Positions 7 to 37,488 of a stretch of DNA of 37,921 nucleotides are shown piece after piece. The DNA is taken from UHGV virus genome UHGV-0081762; one strand, written 5' to 3'. Every line of letters begins with the position of its first letter. The first letter of the stretch is position 1. This DNA is from a virus. Below the pieces are notes generated by a model. The model had not been told where the DNA came from and made no database searches. It was given only the letters and a program-made list of their open reading frames with translations. A program made the position numbers and the translations under genes.

Positions 7-82
7 GCCGATATAGCTCAGTTGGTAGAGCAGCGCATTCGTAATGCGAAGGTCGGAGGTTCGACTCCTCTTATCGGCACCA
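7..82 (+). tRNA. thrW: tRNA-Thr (anticodon CGU), thrW-like; 3' portion from about position 37 is the prophage-side att copy
   Basis: Cloverleaf readable by eye: acceptor GCCGATA/TATCGGC, D-arm GCTC..GAGC, anticodon loop TTCGTAA (CGT), T-loop TTCGACT, CCA at 80-82. Confidence 0.85.
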
Positions 83-100
83 TTTAAATCAATAAGTTAC
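37..100. repeat. attL direct repeat (tRNA 3' half plus 18 bp downstream)
   Basis: attcgtaatgcgaaggtcgGaggttcgactcctCttatcggcaccatttaaatcaataagttac matches 37818-37881 with 2 mismatches. Confidence 0.85.
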
Positions 101-1257
101 CTCACATTTAAGTAAACCACGTTCTCCTCTTGTGCCGTATTTGTGCCATTGCGACTTATAATCGCATCGATTTTGCTCGCGTGCTCGGTGAGATGCCCGG
201 CTGAAAGGTGAGCGTATCTTTGAACCATTTCGAGAGTTTCCCATCCCCCCATCTCTTTAAGTGCAAGAAGAGAGACTCCGGACTGAACCAGCCAGCTTGC
301 CCAGGTGTGTCTCAGGTCATGGAATCGGAAGTTGCTAATGCCTGCCCGCTTTAACGCTCCCTTCCATGCTTTGTTGCTATCGGTTCTCATCTTCCTTACC
401 GCAGCTGTTTTTGTTCCGTCGCTTCGGTAGGCAGGTTTGGTGTGGACAAATACCCATCTCTTATGGAGCCCCTGCTGTTTTCTTAATATCTGGCATGCGG
501 TTTCGTTAAGAGGAACTCCGATCGCATTGCCAGCTTTTGTTTCATCAGGGTGCATCCATGCCATTTTCTTATCCAGATCGACCTGTGACCACTCAAGGTC
601 TGTAACGTTGGAACGGCGAAGGCCTGTAGTTATTGCGAACATGACCACAGGGAAGAAATGAGGAGCTATTTCTGCAAACAGGCGCTTCGATTCCTCTTCT
701 GTAAGCCATCTAATGCGTCCATTCTTAACGCGTGGTGTTGATATTTTGGGAGCCCTGTCAAGCCATCCCCATTCAACAGCCATATTGAGAATAGCGCGAA
801 GTATTGCCAGATGTCGCGTCTTCGTTCCTTTGCTTGCCAGCTTTGGTTTATACTCCGGCACTGGCTTGCCAAGCCGCAAACACCTGTCCCGGCTCATTTC
901 CCAGTTCAGGCGATGGCGGCGGTTTTCCATCCCGTCTACCGCCTCCATTATTTTTTCTGTTGTTATGTCAGAGAGAATGGTTTCTCTGAAGTGCAACATC
1001 CAGAACGATATAATGCTCTTGTCATCATCAATGGACTTCTTATCCGATTTCTCACGCAGCCACCGTATGCAGGCTTCCTTGAATAGCTTTTTCGGCGATT
1101 CCCCGAGATTTTTTACTCTCCACGCTTCTGCTTTCAGACGATCGTGAAGTTCTTGCGCTTGCCTTTTGTCCGATGTTTCAAGAGAGCGTCTAACTCTTGA
1201 TCCATCTGGCGCGACGAAATCGCAGTGCCACGTGCCACCGCGTAGTTTGATTGACAT
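97..1257 (-). CDS. int: Tyrosine integrase (P22/lambda Int family)
   Basis: 386-aa ORF adjacent to tRNA; C-terminal HDLRHTWAS and LEMVQRYAHL motifs typical of tyrosine recombinase catalytic domain. Confidence 0.9.
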   Translation of the reverse strand: MSIKLRGGTWHCDFVAPDGSRVRRSLETSDKRQAQELHDRLKAEAWRVKNLGESPKKLFKEACIRWLREKSDKKSIDDDKSIISFWMLHFRETILSDITTEKIMEAVDGMENRRHRLNWEMSRDRCLRLGKPVPEYKPKLASKGTKTRHLAILRAILNMAVEWGWLDRAPKISTPRVKNGRIRWLTEEESKRLFAEIAPHFFPVVMFAITTGLRRSNVTDLEWSQVDLDKKMAWMHPDETKAGNAIGVPLNETACQILRKQQGLHKRWVFVHTKPAYRSDGTKTAAVRKMRTDSNKAWKGALKRAGISNFRFHDLRHTWASWLVQSGVSLLALKEMGGWETLEMVQRYAHLSAGHLTEHASKIDAIISRNGTNTAQEENVVYLNVR

Positions 1258-6856: not shown

Positions 6857-7345
6857 TTATTTGATAAGAAGTGAAGGTTTCCCAACTTTGAGTTGAGCAC
6901 CGGGGATATTTATTCCTGCTTTTAGTTGGTGTTTGATTGCCAACTTGTCGGCTTTAATTGTCGTTTCAAACTCAACGTATTCAGGAGGAAGGGCGCTTGA
7001 GTCGATGATTTCTACAGTTTCTGACGGTTTGCGGATTGTTACCTGGTGAATACCTGCTCTAATCTTTTTCTTGCCAACCATTTCAAGCGATGACGCTATA
7101 TACGCCATAATGCTATCAATCTTATTTTGAATTACTGCTGCTCGTTCATTTAGTGACTTTGCCTCTTCCTTGAGGCGTTCAGCATAACCAGATTCATTTT
7201 TAATAATGGCGAGAAGTTGCTCTATTTTATCGGTAAATTCTCCTTCCATGCCTTCTATTGTGTCAGCAATCATCTCTGGCTCTAAATCTGAATCCATCAA
7301 TTTTGCGTATTCATTGGCTATTTCATATAGTTTGCTCACTGGCAA
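6857..7345 (-). CDS. Siphovirus Gp157-like protein (recombination-associated)
   Basis: 162-aa ORF immediately downstream of recT; resembles Gp157 family as recalled. Confidence 0.45.
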   Translation of the reverse strand: MPVSKLYEIANEYAKLMDSDLEPEMIADTIEGMEGEFTDKIEQLLAIIKNESGYAERLKEEAKSLNERAAVIQNKIDSIMAYIASSLEMVGKKKIRAGIHQVTIRKPSETVEIIDSSALPPEYVEFETTIKADKLAIKHQLKAGINIPGAQLKVGKPSLLIK

Positions 7346-8225
7346 CCTCCAGTTTCGCTTTGCATTCTATGTAAATGGCTTGTACGTTCTGCTGCAATTT
7401 CATTCCAGATGTCAGGCGATATGCTTCTGCAAAATATCGCTTCAAATCATCCATGTTTTCTGCCTGAGCCATTTCATCACAAAGAAGTTGTGCTTTATCC
7501 ATTATTTCCTGCTGGCGTTTCCGTTCATCTTCGCGGATATCTTCCTCTGATTTGTGCGGCATAACTGGCTCCTGATGCATACCTTCATCTTCGTTAAGCA
7601 GGTGAATGGCATTATCCAGTCGCTGGGCTTTAGGCCAGTATTTGCTGGCGCGTTTAACTATTGTTTTACGTGCCATCTCTTCCCAGAATGTTTTCCACGG
7701 TCCATTCTTTGCCTTGCTCGTTGCTTCCACAGCTTTAATTTCTGCCAGACTCATTTCTTCAGTCAGGTAGTCACCATCTGCTGTTTTAACCGTGCAATAA
7801 CCACCAACAATAGAGCCTCGCTCACCAAATGCGTTGTATTTGTGGGTTGGTGCTGAATCAAGGCCATTTGATTCATAGGTGTCGTTTGAGTACACCAGTT
7901 TGCATTGCCCCCACTTAATTGAACCTGTCGATTGCGCAAGGTGAAGTAATCCCATGTAACTGATATCAAGGCACACCATGCCGTCGCGAGGAACCAGATA
8001 AGCCAGTTTGCTGGCCGGGTTTAAGGTGATGCCGATCGCCGCAACATTGATGATAGCGTTCTGTGCGCTGGTTGGATTTGCCAGTGCCGTTTTAGCCAGG
8101 TAATCATTTTTCTGGAAATACTGAATTGCAAACTGGCTTTCCTTAGCCCATGTCACCGTCTGTTCAGTCAATGCTCCGCAGAATAACTGCTCCTGCTGTT
8201 TAACGAATTCAACGATATTGCTCAT
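7323..8225 (-). CDS. recT: RecT-family single-strand annealing recombinase
   Basis: 300-aa ORF; position equivalent to bet/erf in early-left operon; sequence recalled as RecT-like. Confidence 0.75.
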   Translation of the reverse strand: MSNIVEFVKQQEQLFCGALTEQTVTWAKESQFAIQYFQKNDYLAKTALANPTSAQNAIINVAAIGITLNPASKLAYLVPRDGMVCLDISYMGLLHLAQSTGSIKWGQCKLVYSNDTYESNGLDSAPTHKYNAFGERGSIVGGYCTVKTADGDYLTEEMSLAEIKAVEATSKAKNGPWKTFWEEMARKTIVKRASKYWPKAQRLDNAIHLLNEDEGMHQEPVMPHKSEEDIREDERKRQQEIMDKAQLLCDEMAQAENMDDLKRYFAEAYRLTSGMKLQQNVQAIYIECKAKLEVASEQTI

Positions 8226-8533: not shown

Positions 8534-8614
8534 CTTTCTCCTGTTCTTTGTGCTGATTGAGCATTTTGTTCATCTGACGAATGAATTCTTCGTCTGACCA
8601 GTTATCTGTAAAAC

Positions 8615-8767
8615 TCATTTCCTGCGATACCACGGAAGGTTGATAGCTGATTTCATCGCTTTATTTGCTTCAAGCCACATTTTGGAATCACCAATAAATC
8701 TGGCTATTACTGCTTTGTTCTGTGCAGCACGAAGCATCTGGTGATTGATGGCTATTTCATTGCGCAT
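8615..8767 (-). CDS. kil: Kil-like host cell-division inhibitor (50 aa)
   Basis: Hand-translated MRNEIAINHQMLRAAQNKAVIARFIGDSKMWLEANKAMKSAINLPWYRRK; FIGDxKM core resembles lambda Kil; sits next to cIII. Confidence 0.45.
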   Translation of the reverse strand: MRNEIAINHQMLRAAQNKAVIARFIGDSKMWLEANKAMKSAINLPWYRRK

Positions 8768-17341: not shown

Positions 17342-17961
17342 GACTCGAAAGCGTAGCTAAATTTCATTCGCCAAAAAGCCCGATGATTAGCGACTCACCA
17401 CGGGCTACGGCTTCTGACTCTCTTTCCGGTACTGATGTGATGGCTGCTATGGGGATGGCGCAATCACAAGCCGGATTCGGAATGGCTGCATTCTGTGGTA
17501 AGCACGAACTCAGCCAGAACGACAAACAAAAGGCTATCAACTATCTGATGCAATTTGCACACAAGGTATCGGGGAAATACCGTGGTGTGGCAAAGCTTGA
17601 AGGAAATACTAAGGCAAAGGTACTGCAAGTTCTCGCAACATTCGCTTATGCGGATTATTGCCGTAGTGCCGCGACGCCGGGTGCAAGATGCAGAGATTGC
17701 CACGGTACAGGCCGTGCGGTTGATATAGCAAAAACAGAGCTGTGGGGGAGAGTTGTCGAGAAAGAGTGCGGAAGATGCAAAGGTGTCGGCTATTCAAGGA
17801 TGCCAGCAAGCGCCGCATATCGCGCTGTAACGATGCTAATCCCAAACCTTACTCAACCCACCTGGTCACGCACTGTTAAGCCGCTGTATGACGCTCTGGT
17901 GGTGCAATGCCACAAAGAAGAGTCAATCGCAGACAACATTTTGAACGCGGTCACACGTTAG
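17338..17961 (+). CDS. Q: Late gene antiterminator Q (lambda Q-like)
   Basis: 207 aa; [16 protein letters not shown]... essentially lambda Q as recalled. Confidence 0.9.
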
Positions 17962-18003
17962 CAGCATGATTGCCACGGATGGCAACATATTAACGGCATG
18001 ATA

Positions 18004-18032
18004 TTGACTTATTGAATAGAGTTGGGTAAATT
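18004..18032 (+). promoter_or_regulatory. Late promoter pR' (TTGACT-17-TAAATT) with qut region
   Basis: Sequence matches lambda pR' region as recalled. Confidence 0.7.
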
Positions 18033-18173
18033 TGACCCAACGATGGGTTAATTCGCTCGTTGTGGTAGTGAGATAAAAAGAGGCGGCGCTTACTACCGAT
18101 TCCGCCTAGTTGGTCACTTCGACGTATCGTCTGGAACTCCAACCATCGCAGGCTGAGAGGTCTGCAAAATGCA

Positions 18174-18232
18174 ATCCCGAAACAGTTCGCAGGTAATATT
18201 AGAGCCTGCATAACGGTTTCGGGATTTTTTAT
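18174..18232 (+). terminator. tR' terminator (6S RNA 3' end)
   Basis: cccgaaac...gtttcggg long hairpin followed by ATTTTTTATTT. Confidence 0.7.
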
Positions 18233-18234
18233 TT

Positions 18235-18309
18235 GGGTCAGTCGTATAAAGGTCATTACGGAAGGCTGTTAACCTTCTTATCGTGGTTCGAGTCCACGCT
18301 GTCCCGCCA
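18235..18309 (+). tRNA. tRNA-like gene, probable anticodon GUU (Asn); one acceptor-stem and one D-stem mismatch
   Basis: Hand-folded: acceptor GGGTCAG/CTGTCCC, anticodon stem GAAGG/CCTTC with loop CTGTTAA, T-arm CGTGG-TTCGAGT-CCACG, GCCA end. Confidence 0.45.
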
Positions 18310-18314
18310 AATAT

Positions 18315-18390
18315 GCTGGTTTAGCTCCAATGGTAGAGCAGTCGCCTTGTAAGCGAATGGGTAGCGGTTCAAGTCCGTTAACCAGCACCA
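18315..18390 (+). tRNA. tRNA, probable anticodon UGU (Thr)
   Basis: Hand-folded: acceptor GCTGGTT/AACCAGC, D-arm GCTC-CAATGGTA-GAGC, anticodon loop CTTGTAA, T-loop TTCAAGT, ACCA end. Confidence 0.6.
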
Positions 18391-18632
18391 TAACTGAGCC
18401 GTAGCCACTGGCTATCCTGAATTCATCAGTGATAGTTACGCTGCGGCCTTCTACACATGACCTTCGTGAAAGCGGGTGGCATGAGGTTGCGCTAACAACC
18501 TCCTGCCGTTTTGCCCGTGCATATCGGTCACGAACAAATCTGATTACTAAACACAGTAGCCTGGATTTGTTCTATCAGTAATCGACCTTATTCCTAATTA
18601 AATAGAGCAAATCCCCTTATTGGGGGTAAGAC

Positions 18633-18956
18633 ATGAAGATGCCAGAAAAACATGACCTGTTAGCCGCCATTCTCGCGGCAAAGGAACAAGGCATCGGGGC
18701 AATCCTTGCGTTTGCAATGGCGTACCTTCGCGGCAGATATAATGGCGGTGCGTTTACAAAAACAGTAATCGACGCAACGATGTGCGCCATTATCGCCTGG
18801 TTCATTCGTGACCTTCTCGACTTCGCCGGACTAAGTAGCAATCTCGCTTATATAACGAGCGTGTTTATCGGCTACATCGGTACTGACTCGATTGGTTCGC
18901 TTATCAAACGCTTCGCTGCTAAAAAAGCCGGAGTAGAAGATGGTGGAAATCAATAA
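18633..18956 (+). CDS. S: Holin S (lambda S107/S105 dual start)
   Basis: [25 protein letters not shown]... essentially lambda S. Confidence 0.92.
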
Positions 18957-36800: not shown

Positions 36801-36820
36801 ATAGCGCAGGGATGCGCTAT
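36801..36820. terminator. Bidirectional hairpin between convergent tailspike and acetyltransferase genes
   Basis: Perfect inverted repeat atagcgc-aggga... gcgctat. Confidence 0.5.
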
Positions 36821-37488
36821 TCAACAATTTCACCGGATGGAAGAATTGTAAATCTCTTATAAGATGCCTTCTTTTTATCTTTTACAGCATTAAACTGCTC
36901 TAAAAAAGTAGTCGGTGTCCTTGTATCAATCCCAATAAATGAGCTTAAATCATATTCCCACCATTGGCTATCCAGTAACTCTTTGATGATTGATTCCTCA
37001 AATCTGTACCCTAGGTGTTTTGCAGAAACGCCACCTACGATTGAATATGGCTCGACATTTTTGGTGACAATAGCGCCAGCAGCAATAACAGCGCCAGTAC
37101 CAATAGTTATACCTCGCCTGATAACCGCATTTGCACCTATCCATACGTCATGACCAATTCTTGGTATACCATGCTTCTGTTGAGAGAGGTCGCGTTGCAT
37201 TCCTATACCATCAGGGATTTTAAAACCATTTTTTGAGCCAAAGAAAAAAGGATGCGTAGAAAAATACCCAGTTTCATGCTCGCCAAGGCCAATTTTTACT
37301 CCTGGAGCAACTGAACAAAATCTACCCATCGTAAAGCCGCCGAGCATACAATTAGCGCCAAAGTAGGAGAATGCTCCAACATTTATTGGGGCAACAACAA
37401 GACCTGAAGCATGAAAAAAACATTGCTCCTCGAAGCTAACTTTTGCTTGTGGAGTCATCTGAACGCTTAACATTGCATCAATCACCAT
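36817..37488 (-). CDS. Hexapeptide-repeat acetyltransferase, XAT family (CatB/Vat-like)
   Basis: [45 protein letters not shown] and [16 protein letters not shown] align with CatB-type chloramphenicol acetyltransferase as recalled. Confidence 0.7.

Follow-up and report, generated by a model that had tools for sequence, protein, structure and literature searches.

The 37,921-nt stretch of DNA analysed here (the window) carries two adjacent tRNA genes, one for tRNA-Asn(GUU) and the other for tRNA-Thr(UGU), between a lambda-type late terminator and the holin gene of a prophage. We consider it likely that they form a functional, mobile late-operon tRNA pair, in which the Thr tRNA, and most likely the Asn tRNA as well, serves as a nuclease-resistant replacement for its host counterpart. 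The pair is known already as a cassette widespread among lambdoid and P22-like phages, and its discussion in the literature goes back to the Sf6 and SfI genome papers; the SfI paper of 2013 described the same tRNA arrangement (PMC3636060). It is no new kind of element, being annotated in dozens of phage records, and it offers a clean example of a small mobile module at the start of a late operon that would help temperate phages to survive the tRNA-cutting defences of rival prophages and satellites.

ARAGORN called three tRNA genes in the whole window, namely the two genes of the cassette and a tRNA-Thr(CGU) near the left end (Table 1). The sequence-only reading had folded the two cloverleafs by hand, had read their anticodons as GUU and UGU, and had proposed a tRNA predictor as the check; ARAGORN accepted both genes with the same coordinates and the identities read by hand. 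With the Rfam covariance model RF00005, which has a gathering score of 29, Asn and Thr scored 55.3 and 61.5 bits, corresponding to E-values for the whole window of 2e-9 and 4e-11. Single-sequence folding yielded cloverleaf-like minimum free energy structures for both tRNAs with modest z-scores of about -1.7, the D arm of the Asn tRNA being weak in this fold. The stem mismatches noticed by hand in the first tRNA were found again in the Rfam structural alignment as two non-canonical pairs, of which U4·U69 belongs to the acceptor stem and U13·U22 to the D stem; in the Thr tRNA there is a single such pair, G27·A43, at the upper end of the anticodon stem. Asparaginyl-tRNA synthetase identifies its substrate by G34, U35, U36 and G73, and the identity elements of threonine tRNAs are G1-C72, C2-G71, G35 and U36. 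All of these were found in the two sequences (GUU and G73 in Asn; G1-C72, C2-G71, G35 and U36, and also A73, in Thr). Judged by their sequences, both cassette genes should be functional tRNA genes.

Table 1. Features of the tRNA cassette, its surroundings and the left end of the window.
Feature	Position	Strand	Description and evidence
thrW, tRNA-Thr(CGU)	7..82		ARAGORN; beside the integrase gene
Integrase gene	97..1257	-	adjoins intact thrW at the left end
Q antiterminator, lambda type, 207 aa	17338..17961	+	ORF list; near identity with lambda into the 3' end; HK446 and Kapi1 equivalents annotated Q
pR' late promoter	18004..18032	+	-35 TTGACT, -10 TAAATT; consensus scan; nearly identical to lambda pR'
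6S leader region and tR'	18040..18234	+	about 98-99% lambda identity to 18232; hairpin at about 18174-18226, TTTTTTATTT at 18225-18234
tRNA-Asn(GUU)	18235..18309	+	75 nt, CCA encoded, discriminator G73, anticodon stem GAAGG/CCUUC; ARAGORN, Rfam, identity with phages, covariation
Spacer AATAT, 5 nt, between the tRNAs	18310..18314	+	sequence; phage comparison (AACAT in phage 21 and Sf6)
tRNA-Thr(UGU)	18315..18390	+	76 nt, CCA encoded, G1-C72, C2-G71, A73; ARAGORN, Rfam, identity, anticodon-arm table, covariation
Block downstream of the tRNAs, common with phage 21	18391..18452	+	ungapped homology extension (phage 21, Sf6, BTP1); lambda-type S leader from about 18392
Holin S, lambda type, S107/S105 dual start	18633..18956	+	ORF list, lambda identity, Sf6 and Kapi1 annotations; first late protein gene downstream

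The window represents a P22-like (Lederbergvirus-type) prophage of mosaic make-up, located at thrW; its closest relatives are vB_EcoP-611R6, Kapi1, mEp213, CUS-3 and HK446. From the end of Q to the S gene it aligns with lambda at about 98-99% identity, the cassette excepted. The alignment breaks after the U-run of tR' at about 18233 and resumes at AACTGAGCCGTAGCC, at about 18392, so that a tRNA cassette of about 158 nt stands in place of about 162 nt of lambda that form part of the orf-64 region. The alignment agrees with the earlier placement of the tRNAs between a lambda-type pR'/6S/tR' region and the S gene. The 194-nt 6S leader folds into a long terminal hairpin followed by the U-run (minimum free energy -68.1 kcal/mol, z = -3.75; 0 of 200 shuffles as stable); a simple-pattern scan had not flagged tR', whose loop exceeds what the pattern allows, whereas folding shows the terminator. 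The first nucleotide of tRNA-Asn lies directly 3' of TTTTTTATTT.

A consensus scan of both strands from 17600 to 18700 detected no sigma-70-like promoter besides pR', and a separate tRNA promoter or a minus-strand promoter was rejected on that result. Since no other promoter is predicted in this interval and there is no room for one after TTTTTTATTT, transcription from pR' through tR' would be the obvious main route of expression. It had been claimed that the tRNAs are made only when Q allows readthrough of tR'. The main route agrees with this claim, but the word "only" is too strong: the tRNA pair of BTP1, identical to that of the window, was among the highly expressed features (TPM>100) in RNA-seq of lysogens (Owen et al. 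2020, PMC7067206). Leaky readthrough of tR' or N-modified transcripts from pR could also feed such stable tRNAs, and because the spontaneous induction rate of BTP1 is high, lysogen RNA-seq cannot separate these routes. As also proposed earlier, the slot is the one in which Stx phages carry ileZ-argN-argO, which in 933W lies between Q/pR'/terminators and stxA2. The 933W array differs from that of the window in that it provides tRNAs for rare Ile and Arg codons, has its own annotated promoter, pT, and is several hundred bases away from tR'.

The two tRNAs of the window are identical over their full length (Asn 75/75, Thr 76/76) to those of phage 21, Sf6, Kapi1, HK446 and BTP1, five phages that span three virion types. 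The complete 156-nt cassette is identical in HK446 and Kapi1 and differs by one spacer base in phage 21 and Sf6; tRNA-Asn and tRNA-Thr downstream of Q, pR' and tR' are annotated in the records of Sf6, phage 21, Kapi1 and BTP1. All of these phages and SfI share the order of the genes, the 5-nt spacer and the slot between late terminator and holin gene, yet the context is mosaic, with a lambda-type Q/tR' and S in the window, HK446 and Kapi1 and a 21-type Q in phage 21, Sf6 and BTP1. In near-identity mode (megablast), the 301-nt region around the cassette has matches in 97 phage records; in distant mode 210 phage records match the cassette, many of them with one tRNA only or with unrelated phage tRNAs. 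Of 5426 complete E. coli genomes, 369 (about 7%) contain the cassette, which the NCBI pipeline annotates there.

To sample variants, IMG/VR was scanned with the distinctive Asn D-arm, which returned at least 120 viral contigs that were then analysed with ARAGORN. At least 96 of the arrays were Asn-Thr. Among the matches listed, fewer arrays were Asn-Phe-Thr(-Arg UCU)(-Gly UCC), Asn-Thr-Arg or Asn-Thr-Gly, at least seven were called as Asn-Gly(UCC), and a few contigs had Asn alone. The 150 nt upstream of the cassette fell into at least 16 classes and the 200 nt downstream into at least 20, giving at least 31 combinations among the viral contigs listed. The main upstream classes among these matches were lambda-type tR', terminators of the phage 21 and P22 gp23 types, and a Klebsiella type; in the listed classes from E. 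coli and Salmonella, TTTTTTATTT invariably borders directly on the cassette. The window has the block from 18225 to 18452 in common with phage 21. The tRNA pair and its flanks thus appear to be a mobile module of about 230 bp.

We propose that the pair works as follows. Lying directly after tR', the cassette would be co-transcribed with the late genes from pR', and RNase P together with 3' trimming would release the tRNAs, whose CCA ends are already encoded. Thr(UGU) would then be a nuclease-resistant stand-in for the product of host thrU, a single-copy gene whose tRNA reads the ACA codon over-used by the phage and is the main target of P2 Old, a Toprim anticodon-stem nuclease, as well as a prime target of AriB, the nuclease of PARIS. 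Resistance would come from the altered anticodon stem, in which there is no paired CNG and G27·A43 shortens the stem. The phage Thr tRNA would not inhibit the nuclease; it would replace the destroyed host tRNA, so that late proteins could still be made. Asn(GUU) would most likely do the same job for host tRNA-Asn(GUU), as a secondary target of AriB and a slower substrate of Old.

For the Thr tRNA this proposal can be compared with published experiments. In P2-lambda interference, P2 Old kills by cutting the host tRNA-Thr(UGU), thrU, and phage tRNA-Thr(UGU) genes rescue cells from Old (Govande et al. 2025, PMC12445682). One of them, the phage 21 tRNA "Thr21", protects from P2 Old toxicity and resists cleavage, and its anticodon stem has been described as shorter, with a changed CNG motif (C28U/G42A; PMC12445682). 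Likewise, the Thr(UGU) tRNA of HK446 brought the plating of Old-sensitive phages back to near wild type (Derzhaev et al. 2026, bioRxiv 10.64898/2026.07.10.737580). Unlike the phage variant, an extra host-type thrU gave no protection (PMC12445682; bioRxiv 10.64898/2026.07.10.737580), and the phage Thr tRNA was found to replace the host tRNA rather than to protect it (bioRxiv 10.64898/2026.07.10.737580). Among the Old-resistant Thr tRNAs of these studies ("tRNA-Thr21" and "Thr6" of Govande; those of HK446, T4, Bas32 and Bas33 of Derzhaev), the Thr tRNA of the window has the Thr21/HK446 sequence: it is base-for-base identical to the Thr tRNAs of phage 21 and HK446, the match with Thr21 having been read from the genome record of phage 21. 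It is thus for an identical sequence that published work has shown both protection against Old and resistance to it.

Comparison of the anticodon arms is consistent with these reports. The host stem is ACUGA/UCAGU, with CUG and CAG on its two strands, versus GUCGC/GCGAA in the window, with UCG, CGA and the G27·A43 mismatch, which leaves effectively 4 bp and no CNG motif. The window Thr tRNA therefore combines the features of Old-resistant tRNAs, that is, the thrU anticodon, the absence of a paired CNG and a shortened stem, and fits the published Thr21. By its identity with these tRNAs, it would be expected to act against Old in the window prophage too. Thr(UGU) alone rescued neither lambda itself nor recB toxicity, and HK446 encodes Oad2, a protein that inhibits Old, as well (bioRxiv 10.64898/2026.07.10.737580). 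In the window there is no convincing homologue of gp33, the Old trigger of HK446, and Oad2 has a homologue at 38.5% identity only.

The pair might instead serve pure codon supplementation, for ACA and for AAU/AAC, speeding up bulk late-protein synthesis without any relation to defence; we regard this as unlikely, though it deserves weight. ACA is the third most enriched codon of the late genes, with 18.5 per 1000 codons against 5.4 per 1000 in 41 K-12 genes (3.4-fold), which would explain the Thr gene simply, and host thrU is a single gene. SfI has the same ACA bias (17.3 vs 7.1; PMC3636060). Asn codons amount to 49.8 vs 37.8 per 1000 and reach 84 per 1000 in the tailspike, and some arrays among the matches listed add Arg(UCU), the reader of the rare codon AGA. 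However, the early genes, whose translation precedes late transcription, show nearly the same ACA enrichment (15.3 per 1000), and AGA (6.1-fold) and AGG (5.8-fold) are more enriched than ACA and AUA (2.8-fold) is enriched as well, yet the cassette supplies a tRNA for none of them. The enrichment of Asn codons is only 1.3-fold, and E. coli has four asn tRNA genes. The authors of the SfI study saw no Asn codon bias and considered it unclear what significance the tRNA-Asn has (PMC3636060). Moreover, host-type thrU failed to protect where the phage variant did, and therefore the sequence differences matter. Codon supply alone explains neither this failure nor the presence of the Asn gene. Codon supply and nuclease evasion are nevertheless compatible and not mutually exclusive, since, with such high ACA use, the phage would be killed by losing the tRNA of single-copy thrU.

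For the Asn tRNA, nuclease evasion would concern PARIS as well as Old. AriB cleaves host Lys(UUU) and Thr(UGU) and, less efficiently but in a biologically relevant manner, Asn(GUU), cutting at 40|41 within U36-A-A-U39-C40; the T5 variants of the Lys, Thr and Asn tRNAs are all needed to neutralise PARIS (Belukhina et al. 2025, PMC12409363). PARIS restricts lambda (PMC9122126). The host tRNAs depleted more than 2-fold by Old do not include Asn(GUU), and Gly(UCC) is also depleted by Old (bioRxiv 10.64898/2026.07.10.737580). Gly(UCC) is added in some arrays at the cassette site among the matches listed, which fits the Old-evasion reading. Old has been described as cleaving Asn(GUU) more slowly than ThrU.

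Host asnT has a CNG on both strands of its anticodon stem (CGG, CCG), whereas the window Asn tRNA has none (AAG, CUU). In the region from 36 to 41, the window Thr reads UAAGCG against UAAUCA in the host, and the window Asn UAACCU against UAAUCC; both window tRNAs have lost U39 and are changed at position 41, as are the T5 variants, all three of which have U39 replaced. As proof of nuclease resistance, such anticodon-stem motifs were judged weak on their own. Phage and host tRNAs are alike at only about 60% of positions in the alignments, and hence a missing CNG (about 15/16 by chance) or U39 is weak evidence alone. There are counter-examples besides: 12 of the 118 Asn variants among the matches listed, which are of the type found in Klebsiella phage Mulock, show a CNG on each strand, and in P1 the Thr tRNA keeps CNG and the Asn tRNA keeps UAAUCA.

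With the anti-PARIS set of T5 (Burman 2024; Belukhina 2025), the window has two of three anticodons and the substitutions at 39 and 41 in common; it differs in having no Lys(UUU), and the sequences are not homologous in detail. Lys(UUU), the main target of AriB, was encoded neither in the window nor in any of the at least 120 related viral contigs listed. Thus the substitutions near 40|41 are present without the full supply of Lys, Thr and Asn tRNAs, and since the arrays listed have no Lys(UUU), the pair alone should not defeat B185 PARIS. A literature search found no experiments with AriB on lambdoid Asn or Thr tRNAs; any activity of the window tRNAs against PARIS is putative.

Tentatively, and without favouring it yet, we consider it possible that the Asn tRNA is a cleavage-resistant stand-in for host tRNA-Asn(GUU) and the tandem a two-piece kit against Toprim tRNases of the Old family. 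Its targets would be P2 Old and AriB variants of PARIS, carried by P2-like prophages and P4-like satellites; U4·U69, U13·U22 and the GAAGG/CCUUC stem without CNG or U39 would be determinants of evasion. On this view, the same pressure would also lie behind the Asn-Thr pairing that recurs in P1. P1 and P7 have adjacent Asn(GUU)-Thr(UGU) genes with the same specificities, order and tight spacing (2 nt), but in another genomic context; their Thr tRNA is about 80% identical to that of the window and their Asn tRNA much less, and the P1 Thr tRNA has CNG and a 5-bp stem. The 2026 preprint on the HK446 Thr tRNA (bioRxiv 10.64898/2026.07.10.737580) overlooked the adjacent Asn gene. If the Asn tRNA resists AriB or Old, a 20-year-old annotation puzzle would be explained, and the idea of phage tRNAs as anti-defence factors would extend from large virulent to small temperate phages.

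An Asn tRNA that replaces its host counterpart has to be functional, and the sequence-only reading had suggested that the first tRNA could be a pseudo-tRNA. Taken further, Asn would be a decaying pseudo-tRNA or a mere passenger and Thr alone would matter, which we now hold to be highly improbable. The suggestion drew on the two non-canonical stem pairs, and the weak D arm (z = -1.7) points the same way, as does decay at the same locus elsewhere: phage L and ST64T have a degenerate second gene, which has a deletion in the anticodon arm and is rejected by ARAGORN, and Asn/Gly fusions occur on some contigs. Within the phage L lineage, however, it is the Thr-derived gene that decays, while the Asn gene is intact and still identical to that of the window. 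The Asn sequence is 100% conserved in distant phages, its anticodon GUU and discriminator G73 are intact, and with 55 bits in Rfam it scores as genuine tRNAs normally do.

Covariation was evaluated on the distinct variants among the matches listed. The score was 0.159 for Asn against 0.064 after shuffling, and 0.133 for Thr against 0.074, with 0 of 500 shuffles reaching the observed value in either case; controls in which the pairing partners were slid gave much lower scores for Asn and Thr alike. Stem pairs changed on both sides numbered six in Asn and four in Thr. This covariation supports the two cloverleafs and speaks for genes kept by selection. Among the same matches, U13·U22 was kept in 17 of 17 and U4·U69 in 15 of 17 distinct Asn variants, and G27·A43 in 20 of 20 distinct Thr variants. 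The mismatches thus appear to be conserved features and not decay. Given their conservation, the compensatory stem changes and the identity across phages, the pseudo-tRNA idea was rejected.

Both genes could also act as punctuation in RNA processing, with RNase P/RNase E sites that detach the 6S/tR' leader and set the 5' end of the late mRNA, decoding being secondary. tRNA-like processing signals serve in this way in other operons, and among the matches listed, whatever the mosaic context (there are many), the cassette always lies between the terminator, which it directly follows, and the first late gene. We nevertheless find such a role very hard to credit, because lambda has no tRNA at this position, because anticodons and identity elements are strictly conserved among these matches, which processing alone does not require, and because the Thr tRNA is active in trans when supplied on a plasmid.

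Least probable of all, the Thr tRNA might be carried to make up for insertion into thrW, as has been raised for HK446 (bioRxiv 10.64898/2026.07.10.737580). The window prophage, with its tRNA-Thr(CGU) beside the integrase gene, and HK446, by its attP annotation, both lie at thrW. This compensation was rejected, as thrW at the end of the prophage is an intact copy (71 bits in Rfam) and has the anticodon CGU, not UGU, as the identical cassette occurs in Kapi1, which is integrated at argW, and in phage 21 and Sf6, which integrate at sites other than thrW (icd and argW), and as the Asn gene would be left unexplained.

An exact copy of the 156-nt cassette formed by tRNA-Asn(GUU) together with tRNA-Thr(UGU) is present in phage HK446 (14598-14753 of our comparison sequence L013; NC_019714 / JQ086372). 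Both HK446 records lack any tRNA annotation, and for this reason a 2026 preprint credited HK446 with a single tRNA, Thr(UGU), overlooking the adjacent tRNA-Asn (bioRxiv 10.64898/2026.07.10.737580). Phage P1 (L009, 1425-1578) also carries tRNA-Asn(GUU) next to tRNA-Thr(UGU), separated by a 2-nt spacer. Specificities and gene order in P1 are the same as in the lambdoid cassette, whereas the sequences have diverged; the P1 Thr gene keeps both CNG motifs and an anticodon stem of 5 bp. In Klebsiella phage Mulock (L008, 1201-1520) and similar IMG/VR contigs, the array is enlarged to Asn-Phe(GAA)-Thr-Arg(UCU). The enlarged array occupies the same slot as the cassette, with a Q-like gene on one side and the holin gene on the other.

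Chimeric tRNA arrays were found in six further comparison sequences (L120, an IMGVR_UViG contig, locus extract 301-534; L021; L044; L090; L092; L101). The 'Thr' gene of L120 has phage sequence at nucleotides 1-25 and matches E. coli thrU exactly at 26-76; a mere 3 nt further on comes a Gly(UCC) gene matching host glyT at 74 of 75 positions. Such an arrangement looks like a product of recombination between the phage tRNA-Thr gene and the host thrU-tyrU-glyT operon. Among the 120 or more IMG/VR viral contigs matching the D-arm of the Asn gene, at least seven carry 'Asn-Gly' arrays, in which the chimeric Thr gene in the middle has a broken anticodon stem. Two IMG/VR contigs, L048 and L051, contain Asn/Gly fusion genes for which ARAGORN makes no call. 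In these genes the T-loop (GGTTCGA) is the point where phage tRNA-Asn, represented by its 5' part, passes into the 3' end of a Gly tRNA, apparently after a deletion caused by T-loop x T-loop recombination. Decay of the second gene is also seen in Salmonella phage L (L007, 1281-1352), where it is a degenerate Thr derivative with a 4-nt deletion in the anticodon arm; it is labelled 'tRNA-Leu (TAA)' in GenBank and rejected by ARAGORN, and likewise occurs in ST64T and ST160. The Asn gene beside it in phage L is still 100% identical to that of the window.

Published RNA-seq data on Kapi1 show clear antisense signal over the tRNAs as well as over the interval between them and the holin gene, with a reference to BTP1 (PMC12922286). 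The corresponding region of the window is the minus strand at about 18235-18632. A consensus promoter scan of the minus strand from 17600 to 18700 detected no sigma-70-like site to account for the antisense signal.

Other features of the prophage are listed below.

Features of the prophage outside the tRNA cassette
Feature	Window position	Strand	Remarks
tRNA-Thr(CGU), thrW	7-82	+	intact; Rfam 71 bits
Integrase ORF, 386 aa	97-1257	-	directly adjoins thrW
Oad2-like ORF, 200 aa	5491-6093	-	38.5% identity to HK446 gp27 (Oad2)
Recombination module	6857-8225	-	RecT-like + Mu Gam-like
Mu Gam-like end-protection protein	6857-7345	-	recombination module
RecT-like gene	7323-8225	-	recombination module
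Hexapeptide-repeat acyltransferase ORF	36817-37488	-	Pfam Hexapep, E = 1e-11

HK446 gp27 (Oad2) was reported in 2026 as a protein inhibitor of P2 Old (bioRxiv 10.64898/2026.07.10.737580). The window ORF is a distant homologue of Oad2; the homologues of HK446 gp28 and gp29 beside it show 96-99% identity. The HK75 homologue of Oad2, 54% identical, reportedly does not inhibit Old. For gp33, the Old trigger of HK446, no convincing homologue was found in the window, the only match being one of 21 aa at 8556-8618.

The thrW gene with the adjoining integrase ORF marks the prophage's left attachment end, and integration at thrW is common to this prophage, HK446 and SfI. The recombination module differs both from lambda Exo/Bet/Gam and from the Erf/Abc2 set of HK446, which bears on whether this prophage would trigger defences that sense RecBCD, such as Old. 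Just past the tailspike gene, and on the opposite strand, lies the acyltransferase ORF, probably a serotype-conversion moron coding for an O-antigen acetyltransferase, of the kind known from Sf6-like phages.
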